Both the position numbers and the translations under genes were made by a program. The notes beneath the pieces were generated by a model. It did not search any database, had not been told where the DNA came from, and saw only the letters and a program-made list of their open reading frames with translations. Shown one piece after another: positions 9,971 through 54,634 of a stretch of 64,000 nucleotides of DNA. Source of the DNA: an uncultured bacterium (GTDB lineage Bacteria > Muiribacteriota > UBA6191). The stretch's first letter is position 1, and every line of letters begins with the position of its first letter. Location of the stretch: NCBI GenBank assembly GCA_964603885.1, contig CAZRWM010000001.1, positions 729-64,728 of the forward strand, read 5' to 3'.

Positions 9971-10999
9971 TTAGACCGAAAATTTTCGGGCGCATATTTC
10001 CATCGACCCGTTGTATTTAGCGCTTACCTGATAATCCAGGACCTTAAAACCAATAATATCTAATAATTTTCTAAAGCTCTCATATGAAAAAAATTGTAGA
10101 TGCTCACACACACTCCACATAGGATCAGCATGATCTAATAACCTAGTGTGCGCACTATTAAAATTTGGTGTAGACAGCCACAAAATACCATCTTCCTCGA
10201 GGAGTTCGTATGCTTGCTTCATAGCTTTTAATGGTTCCGCAAAATGTTCAATAACATCACCCATCACTAGAACATTATATTTCTGATTACTTTGGAAATT
10301 GAGAAAATCACACCTGTGAACTTTTATCTTAAGTTTTTGCTCCAAAACTTGAGCATAGTAACTACGAATCTCAATACACTCCAATTGATACAGCATTTCC
10401 AATGCTACGCCTGCAAATTCACCAATACCACTTCCCACTTCAAGAATACTATCACCTTTCGCAAAGCCCATTATCCGTTTGATAATATTACACTCTTCAG
10501 AGAAAGCTTTTGGATCAGGAGTCAATAATGAGTTCATCTTAGTTTCTTTCAAAACTCGTTCTAAGTATTTAGGACGATTGTGAGCAAATAGATGATCACA
10601 TTTTTCACAATGCATCCATACTCGAACAGGGTCAAAACCAGGGGTAAAGTCATAACTTACACCAACGTTATAACATCTTTTTGCCTTAGAATGAGCGCCA
10701 CAAATAGGACAATTGTGAGTCTCGATTAGTTCTAATTTCTGATGTACATAGTTTCTGTGAGGTAAGTTCTGTGGCAAAATATTTGAAAATAATTTAGGGT
10801 CATTTTCGAACGCTAGATAGTGATGTTTTCGTGATTGTTCATAATGCTCCATACGGTTGTAAACTTGCCCCATACGAAAATGTGCAATAGCACCTAAACC
10901 TGGTTTTTCAGCTATTTTCAAATACTGTTCAATGCACGGCACATTCAAACCTTTTTGAAAAAGCTGTTCTGCTTGCTCAAAAACCTGTTGATCATTCAT
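9971..10999 (-). CDS. class I SAM-dependent methyltransferase with N-terminal TPR-like segment and Zn-ribbon
   Basis: SAM-binding motif I ILEVGSGIGEFAG, motif post-I (VLVMGDVIEH), and a CPICG...CEKCDH Cys4 cluster. Confidence 0.7.
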   Translation of the reverse strand: MNDQQVFEQAEQLFQKGLNVPCIEQYLKIAEKPGLGAIAHFRMGQVYNRMEHYEQSRKHHYLAFENDPKLFSNILPQNLPHRNYVHQKLELIETHNCPICGAHSKAKRCYNVGVSYDFTPGFDPVRVWMHCEKCDHLFAHNRPKYLERVLKETKMNSLLTPDPKAFSEECNIIKRIMGFAKGDSILEVGSGIGEFAGVALEMLYQLECIEIRSYYAQVLEQKLKIKVHRCDFLNFQSNQKYNVLVMGDVIEHFAEPLKAMKQAYELLEEDGILWLSTPNFNSAHTRLLDHADPMWSVCEHLQFFSYESFRKLLDIIGFKVLDYQVSAKYNGSMEICARKFSV

Positions 11000-11095
11000 A
11001 TGAGAATCCCCCGCAAATAATATTTGTATTAGGATATTTTAGTATATCGAATAGTCTTAATTAACATAACGAAAATGTAGCTTAAAACATACTTT

Positions 11096-12502
11096 TCATT
11101 GAGAAGATACCCGGCCACAAATTTTCCAATTTTCTTCATTAATATAATTGATATCGAATTCATCTTGAAAAATATATTCCCAATCCCCAAGGGCACTGAA
11201 TTCCTCCTTTGCATAGCCCGTCTCTTTAATGAGAAGTGGACAAAGCTCTATGGGGTGCGGAGGGTCAAGTTTCTTATAGTCTGAATAGCTTATATCCATT
11301 TTCATAATATCCGGAAATTTAGATTGGTATTCAGAAACATAGTCATGATTAGAGCGATATTTAAATATTCTAACTAACTGAAACCATCTATTTAATTTCT
11401 CAGCATAATGATTATCGACTGTTAAATCTCTCAACTCTGAGGAATTTAATCTATCTTGTCTATTAAGGGCGTAAGTGATTGGGTATATTGAATGAAAAAT
11501 ATTAATGTAAATATTGGCTAATTTATCATAGATCGATTTGATAGTTTGATCACCAGTAGCAATGTAGTATTGCCATGCTGCTTTCATTGCAAATGGAAAA
11601 CGGTCAGCTGAATCTACTTTCTCTTCTCGAAGAATATTCAACCAAGACTGCAATGTATCTTTTAGTTCTCTCAAAGCCTCGTCATCAACAGTCAAATCAA
11701 ATTGCTGTGCTGGTATCAGGTTTAGTTTTGAGCGTGCTGCAAACCAATTAAATGTCGCTTGAGCTTGCAGTCGATATCCGAGGTCATTTGCGTGTACTAG
11801 GTCATAACTCAAAAACCGTTTTGAAATTCGATTCTGTTGATTAGAAAATCCAGCTTCACTTAGAATTTTTGCTAGAGGGATAAAATTAGAATGACTCTTA
11901 AAAAAACTATTCATGAAGGTTTTTTCACCTAGAAAATAATCAATAAAATAAAGATTAAAAGATTTATTCCTTGCTAGAGTTTGTAATTCCTCAAAATAAG
12001 CCTTAGTAGCAGATTCAGACGTTTCATCCCTCATCCAGCCATACCAGAAAATCATACCTAGCTTGAGGAGTCTTACCTCAATATAATGCCCGAATATATG
12101 GAGTTTATAATTTTCATGACGCTTCCAGGAATCATTGATGCCGGTGCGCATAATAACTTTAGAACTTGGGGGAAGCAGTCTTAAAATTTCTAAGTGTTCC
12201 TTTCCTGTGGTTCCAGGGTAACCAAGATTGACCACACGAAGAGAGTTGCCACTTCGCTTCAATAAATTTTGAAATTGAGCTGGTAGTGAGTAAATTTTCT
12301 CATTAGACGCTCCGCCTCCAAAAATAGTTGAGTCGCCAACAAAAAAAATAGTTGAATCAGATTTAGCTTGTTCAATTTTACCCTCAGCCACCTTAAAGAA
12401 CTCTGGATAAGAGCCATATGGGTTTACAGTTCTTGCCAGATACTGGAGAGTAATCTCCGACATAATTATTAGGATGAAAAAACCGATCAGTACATAGCGC
12501 AT
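11096..12502 (-). CDS. membrane-anchored SGNH/GDSL-like hydrolase family protein
   Basis: N-terminal TM helix. GDS block FFVGDSTIFGG (catalytic Ser motif of SGNH hydrolases) and a downstream GxND-like block (TGINDSW). Confidence 0.55.
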   Translation of the reverse strand: MRYVLIGFFILIIMSEITLQYLARTVNPYGSYPEFFKVAEGKIEQAKSDSTIFFVGDSTIFGGGASNEKIYSLPAQFQNLLKRSGNSLRVVNLGYPGTTGKEHLEILRLLPPSSKVIMRTGINDSWKRHENYKLHIFGHYIEVRLLKLGMIFWYGWMRDETSESATKAYFEELQTLARNKSFNLYFIDYFLGEKTFMNSFFKSHSNFIPLAKILSEAGFSNQQNRISKRFLSYDLVHANDLGYRLQAQATFNWFAARSKLNLIPAQQFDLTVDDEALRELKDTLQSWLNILREEKVDSADRFPFAMKAAWQYYIATGDQTIKSIYDKLANIYINIFHSIYPITYALNRQDRLNSSELRDLTVDNHYAEKLNRWFQLVRIFKYRSNHDYVSEYQSKFPDIMKMDISYSDYKKLDPPHPIELCPLLIKETGYAKEEFSALGDWEYIFQDEFDINYINEENWKICGRVSSQ

Positions 12503-13776: not shown

Positions 13777-15198
13777 TTAGGCAAATACAACAGTGCTTAA
13801 ATAGCGCTTAGCATTAGGCCGAAACATCGTATCCATCATATTTTTGTAATAATGAAAGAATTGTCCTTTCTCATAATCAGGAAAATCTGAATATTCGATA
13901 GCGAATTCGATGATACGATCGAAATGCTGATCGTAGAACGCAATCATCGTATCTTCCAATTCTTGAAAGTTTTCATCACAGAATTCCTGAAATTTCTGAA
14001 TCTCAAAATATTTATCGCTCATCTGTTTGTGAAAATCGAATTTATCTTGTTGACTCTTTTTAGGATTCATAAAAACTTTCGAATATTTTTCTTGTTCCAG
14101 ATCAATACCCATATTTTTCTTCGTTACCGCAACATACGAAATCCACTTAACCAGAGCACATAGCAACCAGGGAAAATGAGTATGTAACGAAGTGAAATTA
14201 GAGTCCGGACATGCATTCGCGAAATCGATAGGGTGGATGGCACCATCTTTCACGAGACACTCAAATGAATTATAAGTCCAACGATGATAGCTATTTATAA
14301 AACGCACATAGGCCTGTAAGCGCTCATATATATCAGGATCCATAACAATCTTATCGGGACTGTAATGCTCATGCAACGGCGTATCAGGCTGAAAAATCAT
14401 CGGTAAAATCATTGGCCCAATACCCATGCAACGGATAAATACGTCATAATTTTCAACCGCTTCTTGAATATGGAAAACACGACCATTAGTCTGATCATAT
14501 TTTTCGTATAGTTCTTCTAATGAATCGATTTTGAAAACGTCACTTCCACCGCCACCAAAAGCTTTTTTCAGAAAGACTGGGTATTGGTTATTAAAGTGCT
14601 TTTCCATAGTATCTGCAATATAGTTATTGCCTGGATAGAATTGTTCTCTTATTAATTGTCCACGCTTTAAATACTGCTGCATCTGTCCCATGCTTTCATT
14701 TACTTTTTGCATGTCCACAGTTTTACGTTTAGGGTCCCATCCATACTTAGTATTTTTAGTGATAAGACTTTGCTCATGACCCCACATTTCATCACGCCAT
14801 TGTTCTTCGGTGTATGGATGAAAATCAGGCATTAGCACAGTCGTTGGAAAACGATCCTTTGGATGCATTGCTCGAGCAATTAAATCATAAGTGCTATGCT
14901 TATCGAGGTTAGAAAAGGTAAGGCTGCTATTTAGTATACTAGAGCCACAATTTTGAGCCGTTTGTGCCCAACATTTGTAAAAGTCATTCCAGTGGATAGT
15001 ACGATCCACAACCACATCCGCTTGAGGAGTAACGTTAGTACCGCATTTTAGAGGCTCTGCGATAATTCGCCCCAAATCAATCCTGTATTCCTTTTTTTTA
15101 TGACGGATAACGGGATCTGCAAATTTAATGAACTCTTGCATCGCATAGCGCATACTCCAATCTTGTGAAGCCATGATACGAACTTTGATATTTTCCAT
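13777..15198 (-). CDS. ATP-grasp superfamily ligase (possibly glutathione-synthetase-like)
   Basis: Gly-rich loop VFLKKAFGGGGSDVFKI, comparable to ATP-grasp loops of GshB/RimK/eukaryotic GSS. The 473-aa size fits eukaryotic-type glutathione synthetase. Family recall only. Confidence 0.45.
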   Translation of the reverse strand: MENIKVRIMASQDWSMRYAMQEFIKFADPVIRHKKKEYRIDLGRIIAEPLKCGTNVTPQADVVVDRTIHWNDFYKCWAQTAQNCGSSILNSSLTFSNLDKHSTYDLIARAMHPKDRFPTTVLMPDFHPYTEEQWRDEMWGHEQSLITKNTKYGWDPKRKTVDMQKVNESMGQMQQYLKRGQLIREQFYPGNNYIADTMEKHFNNQYPVFLKKAFGGGGSDVFKIDSLEELYEKYDQTNGRVFHIQEAVENYDVFIRCMGIGPMILPMIFQPDTPLHEHYSPDKIVMDPDIYERLQAYVRFINSYHRWTYNSFECLVKDGAIHPIDFANACPDSNFTSLHTHFPWLLCALVKWISYVAVTKKNMGIDLEQEKYSKVFMNPKKSQQDKFDFHKQMSDKYFEIQKFQEFCDENFQELEDTMIAFYDQHFDRIIEFAIEYSDFPDYEKGQFFHYYKNMMDTMFRPNAKRYLSTVVFA

Positions 15199-15414: not shown

Positions 15415-16335
15415 CTACTTCTCAGCCCACAAAATCCCAGGCGTATCATAACCAGGTAAACCCTTCACGCAAAAACATATGTAGCGTTTATCTACCGTTT
15501 CCATGATTGCGCATAGATGAGCCTCTGCTACAAAAGGCTCCTCCACATTATTAACTCTTGGATTTCCCTGGTCATGGCTGACTTTTTTAACTTGCTGAGT
15601 ACCCTCCATTCGAGTACTAATTTGCAAAATTTGGTTATATAATCCCTCTAATTGCAACATAGTTCCAGGAATTCCTATTGCCTCCGCTGCTTGAATCTTC
15701 AGTCCAGACGTCAGTAATAAATAGCGACCAAGATGCGCCTGTGATCCAAACCGATGATCTAAATAGGACTGTAAAAGCCTTTTAAGTCTTTTATGAGCAG
15801 TATCTGCCTCCGAAAGAGATTCATCTAATAATTTCAGAAAGTCACGCCAAAAGTCACTGTTGTGAGGCTCACTAATCAATTTTGTCTCGACGATCTCCTG
15901 TAGTCGCAACAACTCGGCATTACGATCTTCAGAACTATGCATGGGAAAAAAACCTGCCCGTCCTCCTAATACGCACTCTGAAGCACCAAAGACTAAACCT
16001 AAGCCTTGTAATCCACTTCCTGCCAACACGAGACTGTAAGAACCTTTATGATCAAGTAAATAATGGTGAAGCGCTAATGCGTCAGTTCCGGGTAGATGTT
16101 GCGTTTGGAGAAAAAGATCTACCGGTTCAGAGGAAGAGCTATTTTGTAGAATCATTTCTAAAGGTTTAAGTAAATCTAGATGAATACCATCGAATGGCAA
16201 ATTTCGCATACTTATAGCTACAATCTTTCGATCTCGTATTTGTTCTAGATGTCTGAGACACTGAGAGGTTTCAGATGGTAATTGAACTGAGTCTAAGAAT
16301 GCTTTCATGATGGGGTTCATTATGATTTCTCTCAA
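15415..16335 (-). CDS. ClpP/crotonase-fold protein, putative S49/SDH-family serine peptidase-like
   Basis: Segment VLAGSGLQGLGLVFGASECVLG resembles the nucleophile-Ser helix of the ClpP/SppA fold (ClpP AASMGAFLLAAGAKGKR). Start overlaps the stop of the upstream radical SAM gene by 4 nt. Confidence 0.35.
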   Translation of the reverse strand: MREIIMNPIMKAFLDSVQLPSETSQCLRHLEQIRDRKIVAISMRNLPFDGIHLDLLKPLEMILQNSSSSEPVDLFLQTQHLPGTDALALHHYLLDHKGSYSLVLAGSGLQGLGLVFGASECVLGGRAGFFPMHSSEDRNAELLRLQEIVETKLISEPHNSDFWRDFLKLLDESLSEADTAHKRLKRLLQSYLDHRFGSQAHLGRYLLLTSGLKIQAAEAIGIPGTMLQLEGLYNQILQISTRMEGTQQVKKVSHDQGNPRVNNVEEPFVAEAHLCAIMETVDKRYICFCVKGLPGYDTPGILWAEK

Positions 16336-17432
16336 TCTAATCGCTGTAAAACTTGTTCATTTACTTGGGCTGTCGTCTTAGGAATATACGGATGAAACTT
16401 TCTCCAGTGAGAGCCCTTTTCAACGCATGAATAGCGTGGAATATTCGCATCCCATTCTTGTAGATTTTTATATAAAAAAGAATAAATTTCATCCCGTATA
16501 GGTTTAGGGTATCTATATTTGCGGTCAGGCCCCTGCACAAATTCCTGATCAAAGATTTTAATCCCTGGAAACCTCTGCCTAGCAATTCCAGCCAACCCTG
16601 GAATATAACGCAGTAATCCCAAGTGCATCCATGCTATTTCGCCCGGTTTAAATTGTTCTTTTAGGGTATTAAATAGCCCTACATAGTCTTTCTTCCAACC
16701 ATCATAATATAAAACAGGATCTATATTGAAGGCCACATGATAACCGGCAGAAATTAATTTTCGCGCTGCAGACAACCGGTCTGATAGGCCAGAGGTATGT
16801 AGTTCAATTTTACTTACAATTGTTTTCGGATTTAATGAAAAAGAAACTACGGTTCGGCCATTAGGATTTACATCTAAAAGATTTTCAATAGCGGCAGATT
16901 TCGTTTTCAGTTCAAGGTATAAATTTTTACATCCAGCAAAGTAGTTTACGAGATATTTGTTCTGATGAAGCATATTATCGAGTGCTAAAGAATCTGCAAC
17001 TTCGCCGGTACAAATCCGAATAGGTTGCTTCACGGTATTATCAAATATGTCCAGCTCAGTAAATATATTATCCAAATTACAATGTACTTGCATAACAGGA
17101 TTCGTTAAACAAGCTTGTAAAATGCAGTACGCGCAGTTGAACACGCAATTGCTCATTAGATTAATCGTATGTAAGTCGCAGCATAAATACTCTCCTGGAC
17201 TCTTTGCAGGGCAATACTTAATAACATCACCTTTGAAATTATTGAGGTATAGTAGTTTTTTTCCCGAATTGATGATCGACTTTGAATCGCTACGATCAAT
17301 AAACTTCTTGATCGCCTCAAAGCCGTCTACTTCTACTAAAGTTTGCTTAGGAAAATAATCCCGTACGTGACTGGGAACTCTCAAATCGCTTACTTCTCTA
17401 TCAATAAATATATGTTCAAACATGACCGACAT
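16332..17432 (-). CDS. spore photoproduct lyase (SplB) family radical SAM protein
   Basis: CX3CX2C radical SAM motif in NCVFNCAYCILQ (B. subtilis SplB GCMGHCHYCYLQ). C-terminal block GYHVAFNIDPVLYYDGWKKDYVGLFNTL (SplB GYPLGFIVAPIYIHEGWEEGYRHLFEKL). 366 aa. Confidence 0.8.
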   Translation of the reverse strand: MSVMFEHIFIDREVSDLRVPSHVRDYFPKQTLVEVDGFEAIKKFIDRSDSKSIINSGKKLLYLNNFKGDVIKYCPAKSPGEYLCCDLHTINLMSNCVFNCAYCILQACLTNPVMQVHCNLDNIFTELDIFDNTVKQPIRICTGEVADSLALDNMLHQNKYLVNYFAGCKNLYLELKTKSAAIENLLDVNPNGRTVVSFSLNPKTIVSKIELHTSGLSDRLSAARKLISAGYHVAFNIDPVLYYDGWKKDYVGLFNTLKEQFKPGEIAWMHLGLLRYIPGLAGIARQRFPGIKIFDQEFVQGPDRKYRYPKPIRDEIYSFLYKNLQEWDANIPRYSCVEKGSHWRKFHPYIPKTTAQVNEQVLQRLD

Positions 17433-17436
17433 TATC

Positions 17437-18300
17437 TCAATTCTCCAATATCTCCTCTACTACTTGATCTAAGTTGTGAGATTGTAAAATCTTTCTGAGA
17501 TTTTTAAAGTCCTCAACTGTCTTGATGCTCCAATTAAGCTTAAGCTCGTTAGACTCAAGGGAACGGTCCCAATCAACTTGTTTCGCCTGTAACTTCTGCT
17601 CTAAAGTTTTAATAAGCTTCTCACGCTTTGCACGATACTCAATTAGCTTCGGACTACATAATGTGTGCAAAAAAGTGATTAACTTTCGTCGATCACCCCT
17701 AAACGACTCCAAAACTCCACTATATTTTGCTGTAAACGTTTCTGAGTTAAAACCTTCTCGACGAATATACCTACCTAATGACTCAATCATATCTCGCTGC
17801 TGCGACGAACTCAGATGAAAATCAACTAAAATCTCAGCGTAACAACTACGCCATTTAAATCCATTATTGAGCATGAAGCTTAGCAAACCAGGCTCTATAA
17901 CTCCTCCGGTAATTAAATCCTGATATTTTTGAGGTAATTCCAAAATAAATCCCCACTTAGAAAGTAATTTCCTCAAATGTCCTCCAAAATATTTATGAAA
18001 AATTTGCCAGTCGAGATTAAATTCCTTAATTAAATTTTGGATACTGAAAAGGTCTTGTGGCACCAGCATCTGCTCCCAAGAATATGTATCCAAAAGATAA
18101 ATAATCAAATCAGTAAGCGAACTTTGCAAGACTAGGACTTTACTTGGATTTTGATCAAAATTATCCAACCAAAAAAAGTTTTGATCAATTTTTGCTACTA
18201 CTGGCAAATAATGGAGACGTTTCTGACCTCGCCAAGGAAAAAATCGCTGGAGAGTAGAATTTTTAATATCTTGTATGTCTTTTTGTATTTGAAATTGCAC
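17437..18300 (-). CDS. hypothetical protein, first gene of SPL-like operon
   Basis: 287-aa ORF, 4 nt upstream of the radical SAM gene on the same strand. No recognisable motif. Confidence 0.5.
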   Translation of the reverse strand: MQFQIQKDIQDIKNSTLQRFFPWRGQKRLHYLPVVAKIDQNFFWLDNFDQNPSKVLVLQSSLTDLIIYLLDTYSWEQMLVPQDLFSIQNLIKEFNLDWQIFHKYFGGHLRKLLSKWGFILELPQKYQDLITGGVIEPGLLSFMLNNGFKWRSCYAEILVDFHLSSSQQRDMIESLGRYIRREGFNSETFTAKYSGVLESFRGDRRKLITFLHTLCSPKLIEYRAKREKLIKTLEQKLQAKQVDWDRSLESNELKLNWSIKTVEDFKNLRKILQSHNLDQVVEEILEN

Positions 18301-18453
18301 TTATCTGTACCTATTGGGTGGCGGCGAGTCTAGCAGTAGAAAACAATTGTTGCAATGCCATAACTTTTCATCAAAATGCTACCGAAACTTTCTATGAACA
18401 AGTAATTTTTGTTCGTAATCTTTCATGATATAACAAATTTGAAGGCATCAAGG

Positions 18454-19272
18454 ATGATTTCGCCAAATACTAAAGTCTCCATTCTGTTTGTTTTATTTTT
18501 TACAGTTGGTGTAACAAATAACAGGGCTGATGATTTGTACAGCACTATGCACGGTTTGACCGGTGCAATAATGACTCCTTCTCCGTTTAGTCGCCGACTT
18601 GAAGAGGGTGCAGGCGTTTATTCCGTAAACTTTTTTGAACAACGAGATCCCTCTACACTTGTACAAGAACGTGGAGCACATCATTGGCTTAGCTTTAATG
18701 CCGGTATCATTAAAAATGTTGAATTCGCATCTGGGCAAGAGTTTTTTACCGGATCCGCTAATCGAAGAAGAAGATACTTTTGGAATCTTAAGTACTCCTT
18801 CCCAAACGATAGTTTACCGGCAGCTATTAGTGCAATTATTCCAGGTTCGTCTCATGATTACACCAGTATCATAGCGACATTTGGATGGAAAGCTTTCTAT
18901 GCCGGTCTTGGCACAAACGTTTCCGGAACTGAGCTTACCGAACCCAGATTACTCAGTGAACTTCCTTTTGGAGTTGCTCAATTTGGTGGCTATAGAATGA
19001 TTCGTAGAAAAGCAACTAGCGGTATGCAACAAAATGCTCTAGAGGTAGTTGGGCGACCTGACGAAATTTATCCAGTTGTAGGTGGTCAGGTGAACCTAGG
19101 GAATAATATTCAATGGCTTTATGACTACAACGGAGACATTTTCTCAAGTGGTTTTAGACTTACCTTTGATACGAGTACATTCCAAATAGTCTGGAACAGT
19201 AGCGGAGATTATGATCGACTTTTCTTGAGAAATCAGGACAATATTACGGCCAGTGCACAATATCGATTTTAA
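18454..19272 (+). CDS. putative outer-membrane beta-barrel protein
   Basis: Signal peptide MISPNTKVSILFVLFFTVGVTNN (internal Met at 18454 preferred over ORF-track start 18409). Alternating amphipathic strands. C-terminal ...AQYRF with terminal Phe typical of OMPs. Confidence 0.5.
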   Translation: MISPNTKVSILFVLFFTVGVTNNRADDLYSTMHGLTGAIMTPSPFSRRLEEGAGVYSVNFFEQRDPSTLVQERGAHHWLSFNAGIIKNVEFASGQEFFTGSANRRRRYFWNLKYSFPNDSLPAAISAIIPGSSHDYTSIIATFGWKAFYAGLGTNVSGTELTEPRLLSELPFGVAQFGGYRMIRRKATSGMQQNALEVVGRPDEIYPVVGGQVNLGNNIQWLYDYNGDIFSSGFRLTFDTSTFQIVWNSSGDYDRLFLRNQDNITASAQYRF

Positions 19273-20024
19273 TGATCCCATTAAGTGAATTATATTCCAC
19301 TCTTACAAATAAAATTCCTAAAGACCTTGGTGTAATCGATGTTATCCAAGCCGAGGGCTGGACCCTTGTAGAATCTGAACTTGGAGTGGGAATAGCCATG
19401 TCTCATCGAGGCGGTCATACAGAGTCAATTTATAAAAATTGGATTGGGTCACGTCTCTGCGATTTGGCTACACAAGTAAACTCATGGAATTTTCGACACG
19501 CAAGTATGGGACTAGCAGCGGTTAACGCATATTGGAATACGGAGTCCGTGTTAAAGGTAGAGTGCGAGAATGAGCCCCTTAAATCTAAACTGGAATTGCA
19601 ATCTATTCTTCGAGAAGAACAATCCAAAGGAGCAATCATTGGAAGTGTAGGTCACTTTCCCTTCTTAGACGAGCTTCCCGAAAAAGTTATTATTTTCGAA
19701 ATAAATCCCAAACTACCAAATGAATACCCCGCAAGTGCCGCCGAATATCTACTACCTAAATGTGATATTGTACTGTTGACAGGATCCACTTTGATAAACA
19801 AAACATTCGAGCCCTTAAGTCGCCTAATAGAAAAAGCTGAAGTTTGGCTTCTAGGCCCAAGTACGCCATTTGCCCCACAACTAAAGAATTATAATATTTC
19901 TTATTTGGGAGGACTCATGGTCACCGACCAATCCTTGGTTAAAAATCTCATTCGTTGTGGATCTCGCAAAGAACTTGTCAGAAGCACTGGAGTCAAAAAA
20001 ATTCAATTCTGTCTTCTAAGTTAA
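19272..20024 (+). CDS. DUF364/DUF4213-like Rossmann-domain protein (putative heavy-metal chelation domain family)
   Basis: 250 aa. Start overlaps the OMP stop by 1 nt (TAATG). Architecture recalled as matching the DUF4213-DUF364 family. Low certainty. Confidence 0.4.
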   Translation: MIPLSELYSTLTNKIPKDLGVIDVIQAEGWTLVESELGVGIAMSHRGGHTESIYKNWIGSRLCDLATQVNSWNFRHASMGLAAVNAYWNTESVLKVECENEPLKSKLELQSILREEQSKGAIIGSVGHFPFLDELPEKVIIFEINPKLPNEYPASAAEYLLPKCDIVLLTGSTLINKTFEPLSRLIEKAEVWLLGPSTPFAPQLKNYNISYLGGLMVTDQSLVKNLIRCGSRKELVRSTGVKKIQFCLLS

Positions 20025-24537: not shown

Positions 24538-24864
24538 ATGAAAACTGAAACACCAAAATTTAACAAAGGTCTCGTACTTCTTTGCAACCGTTGTAAAGCA
24601 CGCGTAGCTAAGCGCGATTTAGTAGGTCAAGATTTTGGTGAATTAAGGGTTAAACTCAAAGCTCAATGGAAAAAAAATAAACTATGGGGCCAAGTGAGAG
24701 CTTGTGAAACTGGTTGCTTAGGTCATTGCCCACTTGGAGCAAGTGCAATTTTTGTACAAAATCGAACGAATCTGTCTGATCATTGTTTAGCAATACCAAC
24801 TACAGCAACTGAAGAAGAAATCATAGAATCTATTGAAAGTTTTTTAGATATTGCAGTTAAATAA
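24538..24864 (+). CDS. thioredoxin-like [2Fe-2S] ferredoxin domain protein
   Basis: Cys pattern CNRC...CETGCLGHC characteristic of NuoE/thioredoxin-like 2Fe-2S ferredoxins. 108 aa. Confidence 0.55.
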   Translation: MKTETPKFNKGLVLLCNRCKARVAKRDLVGQDFGELRVKLKAQWKKNKLWGQVRACETGCLGHCPLGASAIFVQNRTNLSDHCLAIPTTATEEEIIESIESFLDIAVK

Positions 24865-27715
24865 CCAAATGCGAATTGCTCTGTTTTTATTATTGGTTAT
24901 CAACTTACAGGCTACAGCTACTATTGTTCTTGAGGCTACTCAACAAGGTTTGTTCATAAATGGGAATTTGCATCACCTTCAGATTTCTAAGGATTTTAAT
25001 AAGGTCTGTAAAACCAAATTTTTAGATGGTAGATGGGCCATAAAAGCAAAATGCCTGCAAACACTTGACACATTAAATATCAATGGTGACTTAGGTCACG
25101 GTATTAGTTTACACTTTTGGCGACAAAAAGACGATCAAGACGCAGAGTATGTTCTTGCTTATAGTAGTGATATAGCAAAATCTACCGCCTTGAAGATCTT
25201 TCGAATTATAAATCGACCGAAAGAAGCGTGGCTCCAACAGAATCTCTACTTGCCTGGACTTCTTTTCAGAGATAACCGAGCAAGTCTAACATTTAAGAAT
25301 ACCGACAAATCTATTCATCAATATCAAAAGAGTGTGACTGAACTGGACTCTCTCGGTGCATCCAATTTCATAGACCCAACACGCTTCAAATTAAAACCAT
25401 TCACATCTATCCAAAATATTCAACAGCACGGATTGTTCAGTAATAATAAACTTTGGATAAATCGTATTGTACTGTTTACGGACTCCCTTGAAAACCAAGA
25501 GAAAATTGTTACCAATTTTTTGAAAAACATCCAAAATCAGTATTTACCATTTCTACAAAAGAAAGAAAATCATTCAATCTTGATACTGATTTTATTAGCT
25601 ATCTTAGGCACCTCCCTCTGGGCTGTAACTCGCTACCTTCAAATTCAATTAATGAGCTCCCTCATCATGCCAACAACACTCATCGTGATTTTAATGACTA
25701 AGCCAATGATTGAATATTTTAACTCGCTGGAGGAAATAAGGCTTCAGAAAATCGAACAAGAAGTTAGGACAGTATTTACGAATATCAAGCAGGCACGAAA
25801 GATAGCAATGAAAAACATACATCGAAAACTTACCCAAGAAAAATATTTACTAAAACAAGCCCTAGACGCTACAAATTTCGTTAATCATCCACCCTATATT
25901 GTTACACCACAAAAGATTGATCAGTTAACCAATAAAGAATTAAAAAAAAGAATAAAAAGATTACAGAAAAAACGAATCCACAAACTCTACGACATCTCCG
26001 AAAAAGACAATTTTTTAAAAGCTCGTCTGAGTAATTGCAAACAAATGATAGAGGAATTTAGTTATGAAACTTTAAACCAACAACAATTAAGAGAATTATA
26101 TTCAAAGTTAGTTTATCAAAATTCGATAGTTCCGTTCACTTTAGCAAAGCTCGAAGTTAAAACTGGCTTAGGCCTCAAATTAAGTAATGGAAGAGTAGTA
26201 ATCGAAGCTTCGAGAATAAATTCAGGATTTCATAATCAGCGGGGTTTAGAAGGTCCACTGATGATTCAACTACTGCATAATCTTAAAAAAACGCCTGATC
26301 AAATTTCTAAGTTAAATAGGGAACACCGCCAAGCAGTTTTGTTATTTAGAAAACAATTAAGTGAATTGGAAATTAAACCACAATTTATAACTAAGTATAT
26401 GAATGAGCCACACAACTGGCATGAAATTGTTACGAGCCGAAAAACTGATACTTTTACAATGAATTCGTGGCAGCTTATTGATGCTAGAAATGGCCCTTGG
26501 GTTCTGCTCATGAATCTTAATTTAAGCTCTTTAACCCGAGAGATGGCAGCATTGATAAAAGATAACCAACTCAACAAGTTAGTATCCAAAAATAAAATTT
26601 CCAAAACTACACTTGATTATTTCAATTCCAATCAAAGACCAGAACCCTCCTTCGAATATTTATTCCTTGGAGAGAAAAATCGCGAAACTTTTCCTATACA
26701 TAAGGAGAATTCCTACTTAAGTCGAGCTGCAAATCTATCTAAAATCTACCAAACACCCGTATTTCTACCATCAATAATTAACAATCGTAGCTATGTTGCG
26801 ATGGGTTTTCCTTTACCTGATAATCCAGCGTATGTAATCTCTATTGGACGTGAAGTTACGAACGACTGGATTTTTCTCCGAGACTTAAAGACAAGAATTC
26901 AGTGGCTAATTCTTTTCCTTATTCTATCGCCTCTTCTTTTGGCAGCTAAAATTGCAGGGAAAATTACAGAGCCACTGAGACAATTGGGAAAAGCGGTTTT
27001 TGAAATTGCTAAGGGACGCTACTCAACTCAACTAAAACTTTCTGGTCTGGATGAATTTTCCAGACTTGCTAGCGAGTTCAACCGAATGTCTGTTTCATTA
27101 CAGAAAGGCGAAGAGCTAACATCATTTATTTCAAATGAATCATTACAGAATATATTACAGAAAAAAAACGTCAGTAATCGTGAGGAAGTAAGCATACTAT
27201 TTTGTGGCCTTCACAATTTCGATGACTATCATAAAATCGATTCCGATTCGGCTCGTCAATTCTTTGAAAAATTTATTATAAACTGTCAAATCCATATACA
27301 GGCCAATGGTGGAAGTGTTGATAAGTTTACCGGTATCGCTATTCTAGCTATCTTTAGAAATCAAAACAAAGAGATACGAGCTGTTTCAGCAGCACAAAAA
27401 ATTAAATTCACTCTAGAAAAAATTAATAAAACTTCAATAATTCCATTTCATGTTGGCATTGGACTAGCGACAGGCCCTGTCATATTAGGACAGGTAGGTG
27501 CTAATAAACGAAAAGATTTCACATGTATCGGTAATACTGTAAATCTAGCAGCCCGTCTTGAGTCTTTATCGCTTAAATCTCATGCAGAGATTACTATTTA
27601 TCTTGACTATGAAACATTATCAAAAGTTCCCGAAGATGAAGTATCTACCCAGGAACTTCAACCTACCAAAATTAAAGGCAAACAAGAACTTCAGAAGGTC
27701 TATGAGCTGGTATAA
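24851..27715 (+). CDS. membrane sensor adenylate/guanylate cyclase (large periplasmic domain, TM, HAMP, class III cyclase domain)
   Basis: Signal/TM at the N-terminus, a ~650-aa extracytoplasmic region and a second TM. HAMP (ITEPLRQLGKAVFEIAKGRYST...LASEFNRMSVSL). CYCc domain (FTGIAILAIF...GIGLATGPVILGQVG...IGNTVNLAARLESL). Confidence 0.8.
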   Translation: MQLNNQMRIALFLLLVINLQATATIVLEATQQGLFINGNLHHLQISKDFNKVCKTKFLDGRWAIKAKCLQTLDTLNINGDLGHGISLHFWRQKDDQDAEYVLAYSSDIAKSTALKIFRIINRPKEAWLQQNLYLPGLLFRDNRASLTFKNTDKSIHQYQKSVTELDSLGASNFIDPTRFKLKPFTSIQNIQQHGLFSNNKLWINRIVLFTDSLENQEKIVTNFLKNIQNQYLPFLQKKENHSILILILLAILGTSLWAVTRYLQIQLMSSLIMPTTLIVILMTKPMIEYFNSLEEIRLQKIEQEVRTVFTNIKQARKIAMKNIHRKLTQEKYLLKQALDATNFVNHPPYIVTPQKIDQLTNKELKKRIKRLQKKRIHKLYDISEKDNFLKARLSNCKQMIEEFSYETLNQQQLRELYSKLVYQNSIVPFTLAKLEVKTGLGLKLSNGRVVIEASRINSGFHNQRGLEGPLMIQLLHNLKKTPDQISKLNREHRQAVLLFRKQLSELEIKPQFITKYMNEPHNWHEIVTSRKTDTFTMNSWQLIDARNGPWVLLMNLNLSSLTREMAALIKDNQLNKLVSKNKISKTTLDYFNSNQRPEPSFEYLFLGEKNRETFPIHKENSYLSRAANLSKIYQTPVFLPSIINNRSYVAMGFPLPDNPAYVISIGREVTNDWIFLRDLKTRIQWLILFLILSPLLLAAKIAGKITEPLRQLGKAVFEIAKGRYSTQLKLSGLDEFSRLASEFNRMSVSLQKGEELTSFISNESLQNILQKKNVSNREEVSILFCGLHNFDDYHKIDSDSARQFFEKFIINCQIHIQANGGSVDKFTGIAILAIFRNQNKEIRAVSAAQKIKFTLEKINKTSIIPFHVGIGLATGPVILGQVGANKRKDFTCIGNTVNLAARLESLSLKSHAEITIYLDYETLSKVPEDEVSTQELQPTKIKGKQELQKVYELV

Positions 27716-30059
27716 ATATAAAAATTTTGAATGGCTTAACTTATTATTATTAAGCGTTGTTGTTAGCTTACTTGTGATTGCTTTTTTCAGAAATTCTGAA
27801 ACTCAAATCGAGTCTGTAACGATTACATCTGAATCGAAACAGTCAACTCCATCTAATCAAGCAGAATATGAAAATCGTCTGAAGAAAAAAATGGAAGAAA
27901 TTATTGATAGACTGAATTCCAAGGTTCCTGCCAAAAGTTTAGATTACACCTTTGATAGTTCCGCTTACTGGGTTATAGCTCGCAAAGGTAAAATCATGCA
28001 CCAATCTGGCAAAAAACCAAATCTTAGATTAACTACTGGTTGGCAAAAACATTTCATGCTAGGTGCATACCTGGGTAGAACAAATCCCGAGGTTTTCGAA
28101 TCAAAATGTCTGAGATTATTACAACAACCAATTAGCTTCGAAGAATTTGCAAATCAACAACTTCAATTACATTCAATCCAGATTGGATTTAACAATATAG
28201 CTTACTGCTATCTTGAGAAAAATAGCCTTTCTATCCTAGTGATATTGAGTCCAAATCCATTAAGCCAAGAGAGTTACAAGCTTAAAAAGCTACCTTTATC
28301 TAACCCCACTGTAGACTTTAGCTTTCAAGCACTTTTGATAAGTCTACTAATTTTTGCTCTATTAGTGGTTCTTCAAAAAACATTTTTAGGCTTTTGGATT
28401 CGTCGAAAGTTTTCTCGACAATACGCTTTATTTTATTTTTCGCTACTTAGTTTGCTAGCAAGTTTTCTCATCATACAAATATTTTCTATTGTCAGGGTTA
28501 AAGAATTTTATGCTAAACAAAACATGCAGGCCAAATTCCGGCTACATTTAGCCAAAATAGATGCTCAATATTTAGTATTTAAGAAAAGCCTCGAAGAACA
28601 TCTGGTAAGTACAATCCTGGATGATAAAAATGAAGAGGACGCTGACTTAATAAAACTCCTTGACATTGATGCGTGTCATATCAGTAGGGAAGGACTTTTC
28701 TTTCCCAAGGGCAAAGCCACTACTCGACTTTCTAAACTATTCTGTAAATTATTTGGACTCGAGATTTACAAAAAACAGTTTCCACAAGATTCTTCATATT
28801 TTCAGAAAATAAAATCAAAGATGGAAAGTCAATATAATCTGAATAAATTTGATGATTTAAGCTGGAATTACAAGAGGGCTTCGAAGCATTTAGAGGAATT
28901 TAAGTCAGATCAACTTATAAATTGGAGTTTAGGCAAATTTAATAAGGAAATACTGTGGACCAAAAACAATGGTGTACCTGCACCAAAACTAGCAATCGGT
29001 ATGCTATCCAATAAAAATATTCAGAACTACTATTTTGAATTCTCCAAACGCGATTTACCCCAAAACTGGAAACTAATTAAGAAAGATAATCACTTTACTC
29101 AGACTAAGGGCCATATTAATATCTTGTTAGCTAGTAACGTTTTTGACTTTGATGTCATCTACTCGGTATCAGAAAGCTCTGTATTCAAAGAAGTTCGTGA
29201 ATTTGAATTCACTATCTATCTATTGATAGCACTATCTTTTGTTCTGGCGATTCCCTCTTGGTATTTCATGAGCAACGCTATGACAAAACCAATTCAGAAA
29301 ATTTTTATTGGACTCGCTAACGTACGACAACGTAAATGGCAAAAACTCGATATAATTTCCCGTAATGAATTCGGCCAAGTTATGAAAGGCTTCAATCACA
29401 TGGTTGATCGTCTGAGAGAAAAGTCGGAACTATCGAGTTTTGTTGCAGAACAGATTTTGGATTTACTATCAAATGAGAGAGGAGAATTGAATAATCAAAT
29501 TGAAGATAATGCAGCTGTTCTTTTTTGCGATATCCGTTCATTCACAAGTATTTCCGAGTCCCATGATCCCGAGAAAGTCGTAGATATGCTCAATAGTTAC
29601 TTTGAAATGTGGCAATTAGTGGTACAAAAAAGAGGAGGAGTTATCGAGCGTTTTATTGGTGACGCGATAGTGGTGATTTTTTTCGAGAGATTTAGTAAAC
29701 AGTATGCTCAGGATGCAGTACAGTGTGCTATGGATATCATGTCACAGATGTCATCATTTAACAAAAAATGTTTTCAGACAAATGATTTTACAATAAAAAA
29801 TGGAATTGGAATCTCACAAGGTAAGATACGTTTTTCTGTAATTGGAGATAAAATTAAGAAGCATCTATTTGCTTCAGGAGAAGCGGTTATCAGAGCCGAG
29901 CACTTAGAATACCTTAGTAAGCAAGGTAATATTTCAATGATTATGGTAGATCAATATATTTATCAAACCACTCAGTATCAATTTGACTATCAAAAGCTCG
30001 AAAACAACGCACTTGATACTACTGTGTATGAGTTAAAATTAGATCGAGTGATAGACTAG
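27702..30059 (+). CDS. membrane sensor adenylate/guanylate cyclase, second paralog (TM, HAMP, class III cyclase domain)
   Basis: Start refined to Met at 27702 (MSWYKYKNF...), overlapping the upstream stop by 14 nt; the ORF track begins at 27558 inside the previous gene. HAMP (PIQKIFIGLANVRQRKWQ...FNHMVDRL). Cyclase motifs (VLFCDIRSFTSIS, ERFIGDAIVV). Confidence 0.8.
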   Translation: MSWYKYKNFEWLNLLLLSVVVSLLVIAFFRNSETQIESVTITSESKQSTPSNQAEYENRLKKKMEEIIDRLNSKVPAKSLDYTFDSSAYWVIARKGKIMHQSGKKPNLRLTTGWQKHFMLGAYLGRTNPEVFESKCLRLLQQPISFEEFANQQLQLHSIQIGFNNIAYCYLEKNSLSILVILSPNPLSQESYKLKKLPLSNPTVDFSFQALLISLLIFALLVVLQKTFLGFWIRRKFSRQYALFYFSLLSLLASFLIIQIFSIVRVKEFYAKQNMQAKFRLHLAKIDAQYLVFKKSLEEHLVSTILDDKNEEDADLIKLLDIDACHISREGLFFPKGKATTRLSKLFCKLFGLEIYKKQFPQDSSYFQKIKSKMESQYNLNKFDDLSWNYKRASKHLEEFKSDQLINWSLGKFNKEILWTKNNGVPAPKLAIGMLSNKNIQNYYFEFSKRDLPQNWKLIKKDNHFTQTKGHINILLASNVFDFDVIYSVSESSVFKEVREFEFTIYLLIALSFVLAIPSWYFMSNAMTKPIQKIFIGLANVRQRKWQKLDIISRNEFGQVMKGFNHMVDRLREKSELSSFVAEQILDLLSNERGELNNQIEDNAAVLFCDIRSFTSISESHDPEKVVDMLNSYFEMWQLVVQKRGGVIERFIGDAIVVIFFERFSKQYAQDAVQCAMDIMSQMSSFNKKCFQTNDFTIKNGIGISQGKIRFSVIGDKIKKHLFASGEAVIRAEHLEYLSKQGNISMIMVDQYIYQTTQYQFDYQKLENNALDTTVYELKLDRVID

Positions 30060-53408: not shown

Positions 53409-53458
53409 TTTCGACAATCGTAAATGAACTAATTCGGCCTTTTCTGGAGTTTTACAGG

Positions 53459-54634
53459 ATGACAAGTATTCAAGTCACAGACATGATCCGGAACGGTGAG
53501 CGAGAGAAAAAGAGGCTCAACGAAAAGATCAAAGACAAGATCAAAAAGAATCTTAAGCAGTATGTTACTGATGAGAGCTTTATTGGTCGGCAGGGCAAGA
53601 AATTTGTTCGCGTTCCAATTTACGGATTACGTTTACCAAGATTCGTAGTAGATGGAAGAAAGGGCGGCGGAGTTGGTCAAGGAGAGGGTGATGTCGGGGA
53701 CGCGCTACCTGGTCAAGGACCACCTAAGCAAGGTAAAAAAGGTTCCAAAGGTCAAAAAGCCGGCAATGAACCAGGAGAACACCAGGTAGAAATCGATGTT
53801 GATCTTGATGAAATGGTAGAGCTTATCAGCGAAGTGTTGGAATTGCCTAACATAGAAGAAAAGGGTAAAAAAAGCTCTATCAAAAGTAAAAAAATTAGAT
53901 GGACTAATCTCCGGAAAGTTGGACCAGAAGCGACGCTAGACATTCGGAGAACAATTAAGAATTCCATCGTACGGAATATCATTGAAGGTCACTATGATCC
54001 ACAAAAAGATGACAGTCCACCAATAATGATTGATCGTGATGACAAGCGTCACAAAGTTTGGGATGAAATCTTAGAGAGACGAACTAACGCCGTGATAATA
54101 GCAATGATGGACGTCTCTGGCTCTATGGGAGATGAACAGAAGGATATCGTTCGCACTGAAATGTTCTGGATCGAGCAATTCCTGAAGAGGCAATATGACG
54201 ACTTAGAGATCGTCTATATTATTCACGACACACAAGCAAAGATAGTAGATCACGAAATATTTTACAGAATTAGCGAAGGGGGCGGAACAAATATCTCGTC
54301 GGCATATGCCCTTTGCGAACAGGTGATTCGTCAGAAATATCCTCCGAGTGAGTGGAATATATACCCCTTTCACTTCAGTGATGGCGATAACTGGTCGAGT
54401 GAAGACGATGCTTTGTGTATAAAGCTTCTGAAAGAGTATTTATTACCAAATAGCAATCAATTCTCCTATGCGCAAGTTACAAGCAAATGGGGCAGTGGTA
54501 AGTTTAAGGATGTCCTTGAGCGTGCAATGGAGGGTATGGATGACAGGACAAGTAATAAACTTGTAATCTCTCTGGTAAAAAGTAAAGACGAAATTTTAGA
54601 TTCCATCAAAGAATTCCTACAAAAGGGTAAATAA
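53459..54634 (+). CDS. yeaH: YeaH/YhbH-family protein (DUF444, vWA-like)
   Basis: Gly/Lys-rich N-terminal region (GGGVGQGEGDVGD) and vWA-like MIDAS (MMDVSGSMGD). Confidence 0.8.
   Translation: MTSIQVTDMIRNGEREKKRLNEKIKDKIKKNLKQYVTDESFIGRQGKKFVRVPIYGLRLPRFVVDGRKGGGVGQGEGDVGDALPGQGPPKQGKKGSKGQKAGNEPGEHQVEIDVDLDEMVELISEVLELPNIEEKGKKSSIKSKKIRWTNLRKVGPEATLDIRRTIKNSIVRNIIEGHYDPQKDDSPPIMIDRDDKRHKVWDEILERRTNAVIIAMMDVSGSMGDEQKDIVRTEMFWIEQFLKRQYDDLEIVYIIHDTQAKIVDHEIFYRISEGGGTNISSAYALCEQVIRQKYPPSEWNIYPFHFSDGDNWSSEDDALCIKLLKEYLLPNSNQFSYAQVTSKWGSGKFKDVLERAMEGMDDRTSNKLVISLVKSKDEILDSIKEFLQKGK

Follow-up and report, generated by a model that had tools for sequence, protein, structure and literature searches.

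The window, by which we mean the whole stretch of 64,000 nucleotides that was analysed, carries on its minus strand three co-directional, tightly packed genes: gene A, a gene for a radical SAM enzyme that resembles spore photoproduct lyase (SPL), and gene C, in this order (Table 1). The three same-strand open reading frames described in an earlier note on this DNA are indeed present (287, 366 and 306 aa), as is the 4-nt spacer given there for the first junction: 4 nt lie between the TGA stop codon of gene A (17439-17437) and the ATG of the SPL-like gene at 17432. Of the description of the second junction, only the tight packing stands. The reported 4-nt overlap of the SPL-like gene with gene C exists only if the latter is started from the TTG at 16335. 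Since the homologues of C begin with MNPIMK in seven cases out of eight and with MNSIMK in the remaining one, and are 301-302 aa long, the start of gene C is likely to be the ATG at 16320, 11 nt past the SPL-like stop codon.

Table 1. Features of the A/SPL-like/C locus, in coordinates of the window
Feature	Coordinates	Strand	Remarks
Gene A	18300..17437	-	GTG start, 287 aa; apparently a diverged ParB-like family member
SPL-like radical SAM enzyme	17432..16332	-	366 aa; Pfam SPL
Gene C	16320..15415	-	301 aa from the likely start, ATG 16320; ORF opens with TTG 16335 (306 aa)
Conserved non-coding stretch, gene A to D287 (divergent gene)	18301..18453	none	

The non-coding region between gene A and D287 shows 87-93% nucleotide identity to the corresponding regions of loci L009, L001 and L080, as compared to 66-87% for the adjoining coding DNA, and it probably contains promoters or operators of both genes. 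Within this region, on the minus strand, lies a pair of hexamers, TTGCAA-N17-TAGACT (18355-18327), which is nearly identical in four loci, the sole difference being one position of the second hexamer; the pair matches the consensus at 8 of 12 positions and is not among the sites that the scan tool listed. An SOS-type operator was looked for, and none was found.

The 366-aa protein matches the Pfam SPL model (PF20903) with an E-value of 6e-33 and a score of 114.6 bits (the gathering cut-off being 27), and the SPL of Geobacillus (PDB 4fhc) with an E-value of 2e-27. The latter alignment is far beyond chance and spans CX3CX2C, YC(I/Y)LQ and the AGY..F...P....GW..Y..LF block, so that the likeness to the SplB family claimed in the earlier note is confirmed together with the motifs named there. 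When the profile of the respective subfamily is compared with the PDB, Geobacillus SPL is the sole match (E 4e-44, positions 5-295). The curated models of the family are, in contrast, not reached: the window protein scores 128.4 bits against the SplB equivalog model TIGR04070 (cut-off 400 bits; other subfamily members, 124-153 bits) and 76.3 bits against TIGR03886, the "spore photoproduct lyase family protein" of non-spore-formers with a likely role in DNA damage, which this branch otherwise resembles (cut-off 437.55 bits; other members, 47-78 bits). Because these scores are far under both cut-offs, the SPL-like subfamily constitutes a third branch of the SPL family, one without a curated model, and the window enzyme itself, as the earlier note had surmised, is apparently an SPL paralogue rather than an SplB orthologue, that is, a true spore photoproduct lyase.

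The residue pattern points in the same direction. In an alignment of 84 subfamily sequences, from which the counts below are taken, the three cysteines of the radical SAM motif CX3CX2C (C96, C100 and C103 in the window enzyme) are present in all 84 sequences; the motif has a Tyr between its last two cysteines, as in the SplB of Bacillus subtilis and of Geobacillus thermodenitrificans (Gt; 4FHC). Four extra cysteines, C74, C84, C85 and C336, are each found in 83-84 of the 84; we take them to be absent from Bacillus SplB. The subfamily is further marked by a 6-residue insertion with an invariant Cys-Cys, by an invariant C-terminal Y.C.E....W motif and by conserved C-terminal residues of its own (Y308, R313, Y334, C336 and E338), whereas one more cysteine, C141, is specific to the window lineage. 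An auxiliary Fe-S or Zn site built from the extra cysteines is possible. Retained from SPL are the residues that contact SAM and phosphate in the Gt enzyme, Lys174, Ser195 and Arg273 (PMC3467042): of their equivalents, Lys178 and Arg275 never vary, and Ser199 occurs in 83 sequences out of 84. In contrast, Arg193 and Glu268, the lesion-contact side chains of the true SPL, and Tyr98, which is strictly conserved among true SPLs (PMC3467042), are replaced by Ser197 (Ser or Ala across the family), Gly272 (Gly in 84/84) and Ile104 (in the family, I 59, Y 10, V 7, F 7 and A 1), respectively. The position of Gt Cys140, the hydrogen-atom donor of the Bacillus type (PMC3467042), is taken by Glu144, a glutamate in 84/84 sequences. 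Cys74 (84/84), for its part, falls on chain residue 103 (native Gt residue 76) in a profile alignment that speaks to position only; this is where the conserved donor cysteine of the Clostridium-type SPL (Cys77; Gt position 76) is found, at 4.2 A from the lesion (PMC3467042). The profile alignment to Geobacillus SPL ends at chain residue 323, short of the beta-hairpin tip (Arg304/Tyr305), Lys309 and the Tyr339 region, and the C-terminal 81 residues, when searched alone, do not retrieve SPL. With Arg193, Glu268 and Tyr98 all substituted and a set of four near-invariant cysteines added, either the substrate or the way in which the radical is returned probably differs from that in spore-photoproduct repair.

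The SPL-like subfamily is found in at least 569 loci in GTDB species-representative genomes of non-sporulating phyla, SAR324, Desulfobacterota, Acidobacteriota and Nitrospinota among them. Therefore the occurrence of an SPL-family gene in a non-spore-former, which the earlier note had pointed out, is not unusual. The window lineage is a marine MAG lineage, and the reading of its host as a non-sporulating bacterium of the Gram-negative type is consistent with the taxa that share the subfamily.

The neighbours of the SPL-like gene were surveyed in 88 loci, over about 8 kb around the gene. In 31 of these, an iterated HMM detects a gene of the A family directly upstream, on the same strand; the gap to the SPL-like gene is between -49 and +80 nt in 30 of the 31 pairs and 232 nt in the outlier. 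With an HMM made from the window lineage alone, ORFs that immediately precede SPL are detected in other phyla (E 5.6e-8 in L061), and the pairing is also seen on independently retrieved Acidobacteria contigs. The carriers of the pair belong to Acidobacteriota, several lineages of Desulfobacterota, Binatia, Oligoflexia, Aerophobetes and the window lineage, and are scattered across deep branches of the SPL-like tree. In the other 57 loci, including those of SAR324, Nitrospinota, Leptonemataceae and Desulfobulbales, a ParB-like gene is absent within about 8 kb; hence the partner is either dispensable or encoded elsewhere. The searchable literature yielded no report of a ParB-like protein paired with an SPL-like enzyme.

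The product of gene A has no Pfam or NCBIfam match of its own, and the earlier note had left it as an unknown 287-aa protein. It does, however, belong to a family in which 15 of 24 members match Pfam ParB_N (PF02195; best E 1.8e-13) and in which about 18 of the 22 members from outside the window lineage contain a G[FY][RK]R motif; an hhalign comparison of the window lineage with the ParB_N-bearing members gives a probability of 98.1% and an E-value of 6.6e-14 over residues 88-288. Most members of the family share with the CTP-dependent clamps ParB, Noc and KorB a ParB_N domain with G[FY][RK]R and [ED]NLxxRxLxxxE, followed by a helical domain of the DNA-binding type. They differ from these clamps in that their scores are sub-threshold for the partition ParB and Noc models, an aromatic residue replaces the Glu of GERR, the C-terminal domain (RYP.L ... 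FE) is their own, and the genes are coupled to a radical SAM enzyme and not to ParA. The window protein has gone further still: it retains the HTH/middle and C-terminal domains, but the N-domain motifs GxRR (box II) and ENLxxR (box III) are not present at the aligned position. In its AF2 model (pLDDT 75.5), the top 14 Foldseek matches in the PDB are all ParB, Noc or Spo0J, each of them weak (E 0.013-0.5, TM 0.17-0.40). Thus, gene A appears to encode a divergent, degenerate ParB-like protein, the conserved upstream partner of the SPL-like subfamily. The suggestion of the earlier note that the enzyme has a different function and a partner of its own fits this picture, with gene A as the cross-phylum partner in place of the peptidase-like protein that had been cast in that role.

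Gene C is of another kind. Its orthologues follow SPL in loci L001, L004, L006-8, L009, L010, L080, L089-91, L094, L108 and L109 and nowhere else among the loci, and only 8 representatives are found among 1.84 billion proteins; C is an orphan restricted to the lineage of the window. Of the checks that the earlier note had proposed, profile searches of the flanking ORFs led to a family for gene A and to none for gene C, which has no Pfam, NCBIfam or PADLOC match, and co-occurrence with SPL genes outside Firmicutes extends over several phyla for A and is confined to this one lineage for C. The ClpP- or SppA-like nucleophile helix that had been read into C does not withstand comparison of the orthologues: the serine gives way to Pro, Lys and Pro in those of L006, L010 and L004, respectively, the following His is not conserved either, and none of 12 members of the C family matches the ClpP, S49 or SDH models of Pfam, even at E<=10. 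What C shares with ClpP (S14) and SppA (S49) is a Gly-rich helix pattern, where residues 55-113 of C are set against ClpP 63-123 over the same stretch that the earlier note had flagged; this alignment is not significant (hhalign probability 0.7%, E 0.08). The AF2 model of C is poor (pLDDT 53), with a beta-rich C-terminal half that is extra to and unlike ClpP, and the Foldseek list obtained from it is incoherent, ClpP being placed at ranks 11, 14 and 21 with E >= 0.36.

When considering what such a locus might do, a true SplB orthologue should be weighed, one that repairs 5-thyminyl-5,6-dihydrothymine in a non-sporulator, with A as a regulator in the manner of SplA in Bacillus. There, splA precedes splB, and here, too, a gene of the DNA-binding type stands upstream. 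SPL provides the sole PDB relatives and the closest solved structure, the Pfam SPL model is matched, and a Cys occupies the Clostridium-type donor position; moreover, a UV-C-induced SPL-family gene is known in the non-spore-former Curtobacterium (PMC12029717), presumably one of the TIGR03886 kind, a related branch. Many SPL-like carriers, however, are anaerobes or organisms of dark habitats, in which the combination of UV and dry DNA that forms the spore photoproduct is unlikely. The partner in the window is a 287-aa ParB-like protein and not the small regulator SplA, and SplB is known from endospore formers, whereas the hosts of the SPL-like subfamily come from non-sporulating phyla. Given also the shortfall against TIGR04070, which other subfamily members share, the replacement of Tyr98, Arg193, Glu268 and Cys140, the C-terminal hairpin and Tyr339 region that cannot be aligned, and the four extra invariant cysteines, we regard orthology with SplB as distinctly improbable.

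DNA-modification systems often include a partner protein of the ParB/Srx type, and a system of this kind, epigenetic or possibly defensive, could be envisaged here; the ParB-like member would do the DNA targeting, and its radical SAM companion would introduce or rearrange a base modification. The patchy distribution of the ParB-SPL pair across phyla would agree with such a role, and the extra cysteines could hold an auxiliary cluster of the sort that many modifying radical SAM enzymes possess; a precedent is gp53 of phage M6, a DNA-modifying radical SAM enzyme (PMC8989533). Yet PADLOC-DB v2 has no match for A, SPL or C; a nuclease, methylase, integrase or other hallmarks of an island are not seen beside the pair in the loci examined; and the surroundings in the window are ordinary chromosomal housekeeping DNA, syntenic in the lineage. 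This reading, therefore, is unlikely, albeit worth serious attention.

We give hardly any credence to the reading of the earlier note, a radical SAM enzyme coupled to a ClpP-fold protein, which would amount to a system that modifies and processes peptides or proteins, possibly together with the ATP-grasp-like G473 and an M20 peptidase encoded downstream. Gene C does follow the enzyme gene closely, ClpP does figure among the noise-level hhalign and Foldseek matches, no terminator-like site separates C from G473 whereas a strong one lies after G473, and G473 has a weak ATP-grasp match. However, the putative catalytic residues of C are not conserved and its peptidase matches fail as described above, C occurs in one lineage as compared to a widespread enzyme family, C and G473 are set apart by gaps of 86-334 nt, homologues of G473 (57-61% identity) reside on contigs where A, SPL, C and M20 are all missing over 7 kb, and no ORF resembling a precursor peptide was noted. 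Alternatively, A, SPL and C might form no functional module at all and be neighbours only by virtue of the inherited gene order of one lineage. Indeed, D287, DUF364, the aminotransferase, G473 and M20 are all syntenic in the window lineage, along with A, SPL and C, and C has no relatives elsewhere; with an entire neighbourhood in synteny, C may owe its linkage to inherited gene order rather than to function. For the three genes together, this explanation seems quite improbable: genes of the A family adjoin SPL-like genes in unrelated phyla with different flanking genes, the gaps within A-SPL-C are kept at no more than about 80-120 nt while the remaining gaps in the region are larger, and the orthologues of A and C hold their places despite identities down to 17-32%.

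Set beside the observed gene order, tight spacing, family memberships, linkage of A and SPL across phyla and residue patterns, the reading that we prefer is that the locus represents a lineage-specific, three-gene form of a widespread, DNA-acting two-gene module that consists of a ParB-type protein and an SPL-like radical SAM enzyme; we consider this about as probable as its contrary. The nucleic-acid substrate of the enzyme is inferred only from homology and neighbours. Among the latter is an SSB gene, which follows the SPL-like gene in 24 loci of Desulfobulbales; the UV-C response of the Curtobacterium gene, from a related branch, likewise speaks for this reading. In such a module, SAM would be bound at the [4Fe-4S] cluster held by C96, C100 and C103, with contacts from Lys178, Ser199 and Arg275, and the 5'-deoxyadenosyl radical would take a hydrogen atom from a base, damaged or targeted, that is flipped out. 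Scission or rearrangement of a bond would follow, after which a cysteine would quench the substrate radical, Cys74, at the Clostridium-type donor position, being a candidate. The ParB-like partner, which in most lineages has the nucleotide-binding motifs GxRR and ENLxxR, could bring the enzyme to DNA or load it there. In the window lineage, the N-terminal ParB switch would have decayed, and the operon would have gained the orphan C, perhaps as a substitute accessory. We favour direct-reversal repair of a base lesion of the dimer or cross-link type over installing a modification in the DNA.

The fuller scenario can be put forward only tentatively, and we would sooner expect it to need revision than to hold throughout. 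It envisages a widespread, hitherto unrecognised DNA-directed radical SAM system of non-sporulating bacteria, in which a DNA clamp of the ParB type, probably switched by CTP, guides an SPL-like enzyme with an additional four-Cys metal or redox site to mend or rewrite some base lesion distinct from the classical spore photoproduct, the window lineage having a derived version with a decayed ParB switch and a recruited C. Methylene-bridged cross-links formed under anoxia are one candidate for the lesion.

To our knowledge, spore photoproduct lyase, the textbook example, is nearly the only radical SAM enzyme of DNA repair, and it is seen as a speciality of spores. A sister subfamily with an altered active site, spread over non-sporulators and accompanied, in roughly one third of the loci examined, by a ParB-like partner with translational coupling, is of interest in this respect: should the pair act on DNA, direct repair or modification by radical chemistry would reach well beyond spores, and the ParB CTPase fold would gain a new kind of client, an enzyme instead of a partition complex. 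The window itself is a more modest case, a derived and partly degenerate copy for which the "ClpP" lead has found no support. A comparison by gene partners can be made with the SplB-like, COG1533-type radical SAM "photolyases" that occur in SOS-linked operons with ImuB-C, DUF4130 and uracil-DNA glycosylase (Aravind et al. 2013, PMC3765255). Those enzymes, too, are radical SAM proteins with a predicted action on DNA bases, and they were defined by their DNA-repair gene neighbourhoods; in contrast, ImuB-C, DUF4130 and uracil-DNA glycosylase are not seen in the SPL-like loci examined, where the partner is ParB-like. A cultured carrier of the enzyme alone is available in Desulforhopalus singaporensis DSM 12130.

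The result of general value here is the pairing of a ParB-like protein with radical SAM enzymes related to spore photoproduct lyase (SPL), and the window copy is a derived example of this pairing. In the window, the gene of the ParB-like protein (A), the enzyme gene and a third gene downstream (C) make up a tightly packed operon. The earlier note had described three genes on one strand, with 4 nt between A and the enzyme gene, and both points stand: all three ORFs lie on the minus strand, and 4 nt separate the stop codon of A from the ATG that opens the radical SAM gene. The 4-nt overlap that it also proposed between the enzyme gene and C has to be abandoned. Seven of the eight C homologues are 301-302 aa long with the N-terminus MNPIMK, one starting with MNSIMK, and, given these lengths and N-termini, the likely start of C is an ATG 11 nt past the radical SAM stop. 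No terminator-like site was found between C and G473, a gene of 473 codons flanking the operon; the sole convincing terminator-like hairpin lies 3' of G473. The window itself is ordinary chromosomal DNA of a marine MAG lineage that is unclassified (sources: Tara and ENA), with a G+C content of about 38% and genes for RelA/SpoT, aldehyde dehydrogenase and oxoprolinase, as well as a PrkA-DUF444-SpoVR operon. It contains no Rfam match at gathering thresholds, and the PADLOC defence models gave zero matches for A, the SPL-like enzyme or C.

Positions of the features discussed (in the window unless another locus is named)
Feature	Position	Strand	Remarks
A	18300..17437	minus	287 aa, GTG start
SPL-like radical SAM gene	17432..16332	minus	366 aa
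C	ORF opens TTG 16335, ends 15415	minus	likely start ATG 16320
G473	15198..13777	minus	next gene downstream of C, 216 nt away
Terminator-like hairpin	13761-13736		
A-D287 intergenic region	18301-18453		153 nt; D287 divergent from A
TTGCAA-N17-TAGACT	18355-18327	minus	within the A-D287 intergenic region
D287 ORF	18409-19272	plus	likely true start ATG 18454
DUF4213/DUF364 ("heavy-metal chelation") gene	19272-20024	plus	abuts the end of D287
Two adjacent large genes	24851-30059	plus	each with a terminal adenylate/guanylate cyclase domain
PrkA-DUF444-SpoVR operon (yeaG/yeaH/ycgB-like)	51384-56145	plus	
GDSL-like ORF	11096-12502	minus	468 aa
SAR324 LON N-domain protein	~9104-9772 in L012, L015, L019 and L021; 2936-3574 in L011		other loci with an SPL-like gene

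The relationship of the enzyme to SPL is clear: it matches the Pfam SPL family (E 6e-33, 114.6 bits), its PDB relatives are exclusively the SPL entries of Geobacillus thermodenitrificans (Gt; E about 1e-27 with the single sequence and 4e-44 with the family profile), and the alignments to Gt SPL bear out the SplB-type motifs recognized in the earlier note. Nevertheless, the enzyme is not an SplB orthologue, since it scores 128.4 bits against TIGR04070 (cut-off 400) and 76.3 bits against TIGR03886 (cut-off 437.55), other members of its branch likewise falling below both cut-offs. This branch is without a curated model, and we found no characterised member of it. The enzyme thus belongs to a distinct branch of the SPL fold, and the branch is widespread: when GTDB was pattern-scanned with one genome for each species, at least 569 loci were confirmed, the best 80 of which come from SAR324, many Desulfobacterota (including the cultured Desulforhopalus singaporensis DSM 12130 and Desulfurivibrio), Acidobacteriota, Nitrospinota, Leptonemataceae, Oligoflexia, Binatia and Aerophobetes. 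Given the number of these loci and the taxa that carry them, an SPL-family gene in a non-spore-former, which the earlier note had considered noteworthy, is ordinary for this branch. The PrkA, DUF444 and SpoVR genes of the window carry "sporulation" names, yet are common in Gram-negative bacteria, and are therefore uninformative on sporulation here.

The residues of Gt SPL for which roles have been described by Benjdia et al. (PMC3467042) were mapped onto the alignments and counted over 84 sequences. Those that serve the cofactor are kept: the CX3CX2C cluster motif is invariant, as are Lys178 and Arg275, the counterparts of the SAM/phosphate contacts Lys174 and Arg273, and Ser199, the counterpart of Ser195, is present in 83 of 84 sequences. 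At the remaining positions, the radical-relay residue Tyr98 is replaced by Ile104, the H-atom donor of the Bacillus type, Cys140, by Glu144 (84/84), and the lesion contacts Arg193 and Glu268 by Ser or Ala and by Gly (84/84), respectively; the C-terminal region, which in Gt SPL includes the DNA-inserting hairpin with Tyr339, could not be aligned with the enzyme. The enzyme thus retains the scaffold and the cofactor chemistry of SPL; the tyrosine relay and the lesion-recognition residues are not retained. The family also has extra near-invariant cysteines, namely C74, C84, C85 and C336, each found in 83-84 of the 84 sequences. In the profile alignment, C74 coincides exactly with Gt residue 76, the position of the alternative H-donor cysteine of Clostridium SPLs, 4.2 A from the lesion (PMC3467042), so that a plausible donor cysteine is at hand. 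The pair C84-C85 lies within a 6-residue insertion beside C74, and the enzyme would probably carry an additional metal or redox site. Yet another cysteine, Cys141, is restricted to the window's lineage, i.e. the relatives that share the A-enzyme-C arrangement; it is present in 7/7 sequences there, whereas 76 of 77 others have Gly. Cys141 sits three residues ahead of the position of SPL Cys140 and co-occurs with the presence of C and with A proteins that have lost their ParB N-domain motifs.

Taken alone, A of the window matches nothing in Pfam, NCBIfam or PADLOC, and a word-indexed search retrieves close relatives only. Its orthologues precede the enzyme gene throughout the window's lineage (loci L001, L004, L006-8, L009, L010 and L080); their identity drops to 17-23%, that of the enzymes of these loci being 49-90%. 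With the lineage sequences as its sole input, an HMM picked up ORFs directly upstream of the SPL-like gene in other phyla (E 5.6e-8 in locus L061, for instance) and, once iterated to convergence, gave 31 of 88 loci with an A-family gene in this place, in all cases on the same strand and, in all but one, with a gap to the enzyme gene of -49 to +80 nt (the single outlier being 232 nt). The same arrangement was found on two more, independently retrieved Acidobacteria contigs. Several observations mark the family as ParB-like: Pfam ParB_N matches 15 of 24 aligned members (best E 1.8e-13) and HTH_ParB two, matches to the Noc and ParB models of NCBIfam stay below threshold, and about 18 of the 22 members outside the window's lineage show G[FY][RK]R followed by [ED]NLxxRxLxxxE. 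These motifs, which we take to be ParB boxes II and III, are absent from A in the window's lineage. The hhalign match between lineage A and the ParB_N-bearing members covers residues 88-288 only, i.e. the helical middle and the C-terminal domains (probability 98.1%, E 6.6e-14). For the AF2 model of the window protein (pLDDT 75.5; 85-92 in the helical core), the 14 top-ranking PDB structures are ParB, Noc and Spo0J, at weak E values (0.013-0.5).

The ParB-like family is thus a recurrent, translationally coupled upstream partner of the enzyme in several phyla. In a neighbour-joining tree of the enzymes, many deep branches hold ParB-linked genes, and an adjacent ParB-like partner is absent in SAR324, Nitrospinota, Leptonemataceae and Desulfobulbales. 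In SAR324, the gene downstream of the SPL-like one codes for a LON substrate-binding (N) domain standing alone, a protein of 212 aa (E 1e-36); in Desulfobulbales (L022 and 23 other loci), the enzyme gene is flanked by those of a GT2 glycosyltransferase and SSB. On the converse question, whether A-family genes always lie beside SPL, a metagenome scan confirmed no relative.

Of the two flanking genes, for which the earlier note recommended profile searches and co-occurrence analysis, A is tied to the ParB-like family and linked to the enzyme across phyla; C has no Pfam match and is confined to the window's lineage. Throughout this lineage, and in no other of the 109 loci, C comes directly after the enzyme gene, and HMMER, run exhaustively on 1.84 billion representatives, returned 8 proteins only, all of about 300 aa. 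The ClpP/SppA-like nucleophile helix, for which the locus had been flagged, does not hold, and the ClpP/SppA reading of C was rejected as unsupported. The three orthologues that are most distant have Pro, Lys and Pro in place of the proposed Ser, the His after it is likewise not conserved, Clp-fold peptidase models match no member of the C family at E<=10, and hhalign of C against ClpP returns the very stretch that had caught attention, with a probability of 0.7%. As a detached ParB N-domain or a relative of the LON N-domain, C fares no better (hhalign 0.4% and 0.1%, respectively). Its AF2 model, in which a helical middle connects an alpha/beta N-terminal half with a C-terminal half rich in beta structure, is of low confidence (pLDDT 53) and yields an incoherent Foldseek list. 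C remains an orphan protein.

SplB is the closest known enzyme, and the window protein resembles it in cofactor and fold, but fails several of its defining features, which is why we do not class it with SplB. Linkage of SplB-like radical SAM genes to SOS components is known from earlier work (PMC3765255), but with different partners. In the literature covered, which is incomplete, we came across no account of an SPL-family enzyme with a ParB-like partner, and this is absence of evidence only. We propose that the A-enzyme module would act on DNA, with the ParB-like protein targeting the enzyme to DNA or loading it there. The enzyme would apply radical chemistry of the SPL type to a substrate that is probably other than the classical spore photoproduct; Cys74 would be the returning H-donor, and a second metal site may take part. 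The ParB nucleotide switch would have decayed, and C would have been added, in the lineage of the window. A serious rival is that the module installs a DNA modification instead of repairing DNA. Restriction, island or defence hallmarks are, however, not seen beside the A-enzyme pair, and UV induces an SPL-family gene that belongs to another branch (PMC12029717); for these two reasons, we favour repair over modification.

On its upstream side, the operon is separated from the divergent flanking gene D287 by a region that is 87-93% identical to that of three related loci and thereby exceeds all flanking coding DNA in conservation, the latter being 66-87% identical. This conservation, together with the conserved TTGCAA-N17-TAGACT element, suggests selection on regulation. 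An SOS/LexA-type operator was considered upstream of A and rejected, the GAAC-N11-GTTC repeat of the window not being conserved in the related loci L009 or L001. D287, with its signal-peptide-like N-terminus and C-terminal ...YRF, is conserved, has no Pfam match and may be an outer-membrane protein; both D287 and the DUF4213/DUF364 gene are syntenic with the operon across the window's lineage. On the other side, G473, which gives a weak ATP-grasp (RimK-type) signal and belongs to no Pfam family, is very strongly conserved, at 68-97% identity across loci whose SPL-like enzymes show 49-90%. Because its homologues (57-61% identity) also occur on long contigs that lack A, SPL, C and M20 within 7 kb, we treat G473 as a mere neighbour; for this reason and because of larger intergenic gaps, G473 and M20 were rejected as parts of the system.

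Elsewhere in the window, the first of the two cyclase-domain genes also has a HAMP domain, and the two listed ORFs overlap by about 150 nt. The GDSL-like ORF corresponds to two called genes (305 and 163 aa; 10921-12326) in L001, a relative with 85% identity.
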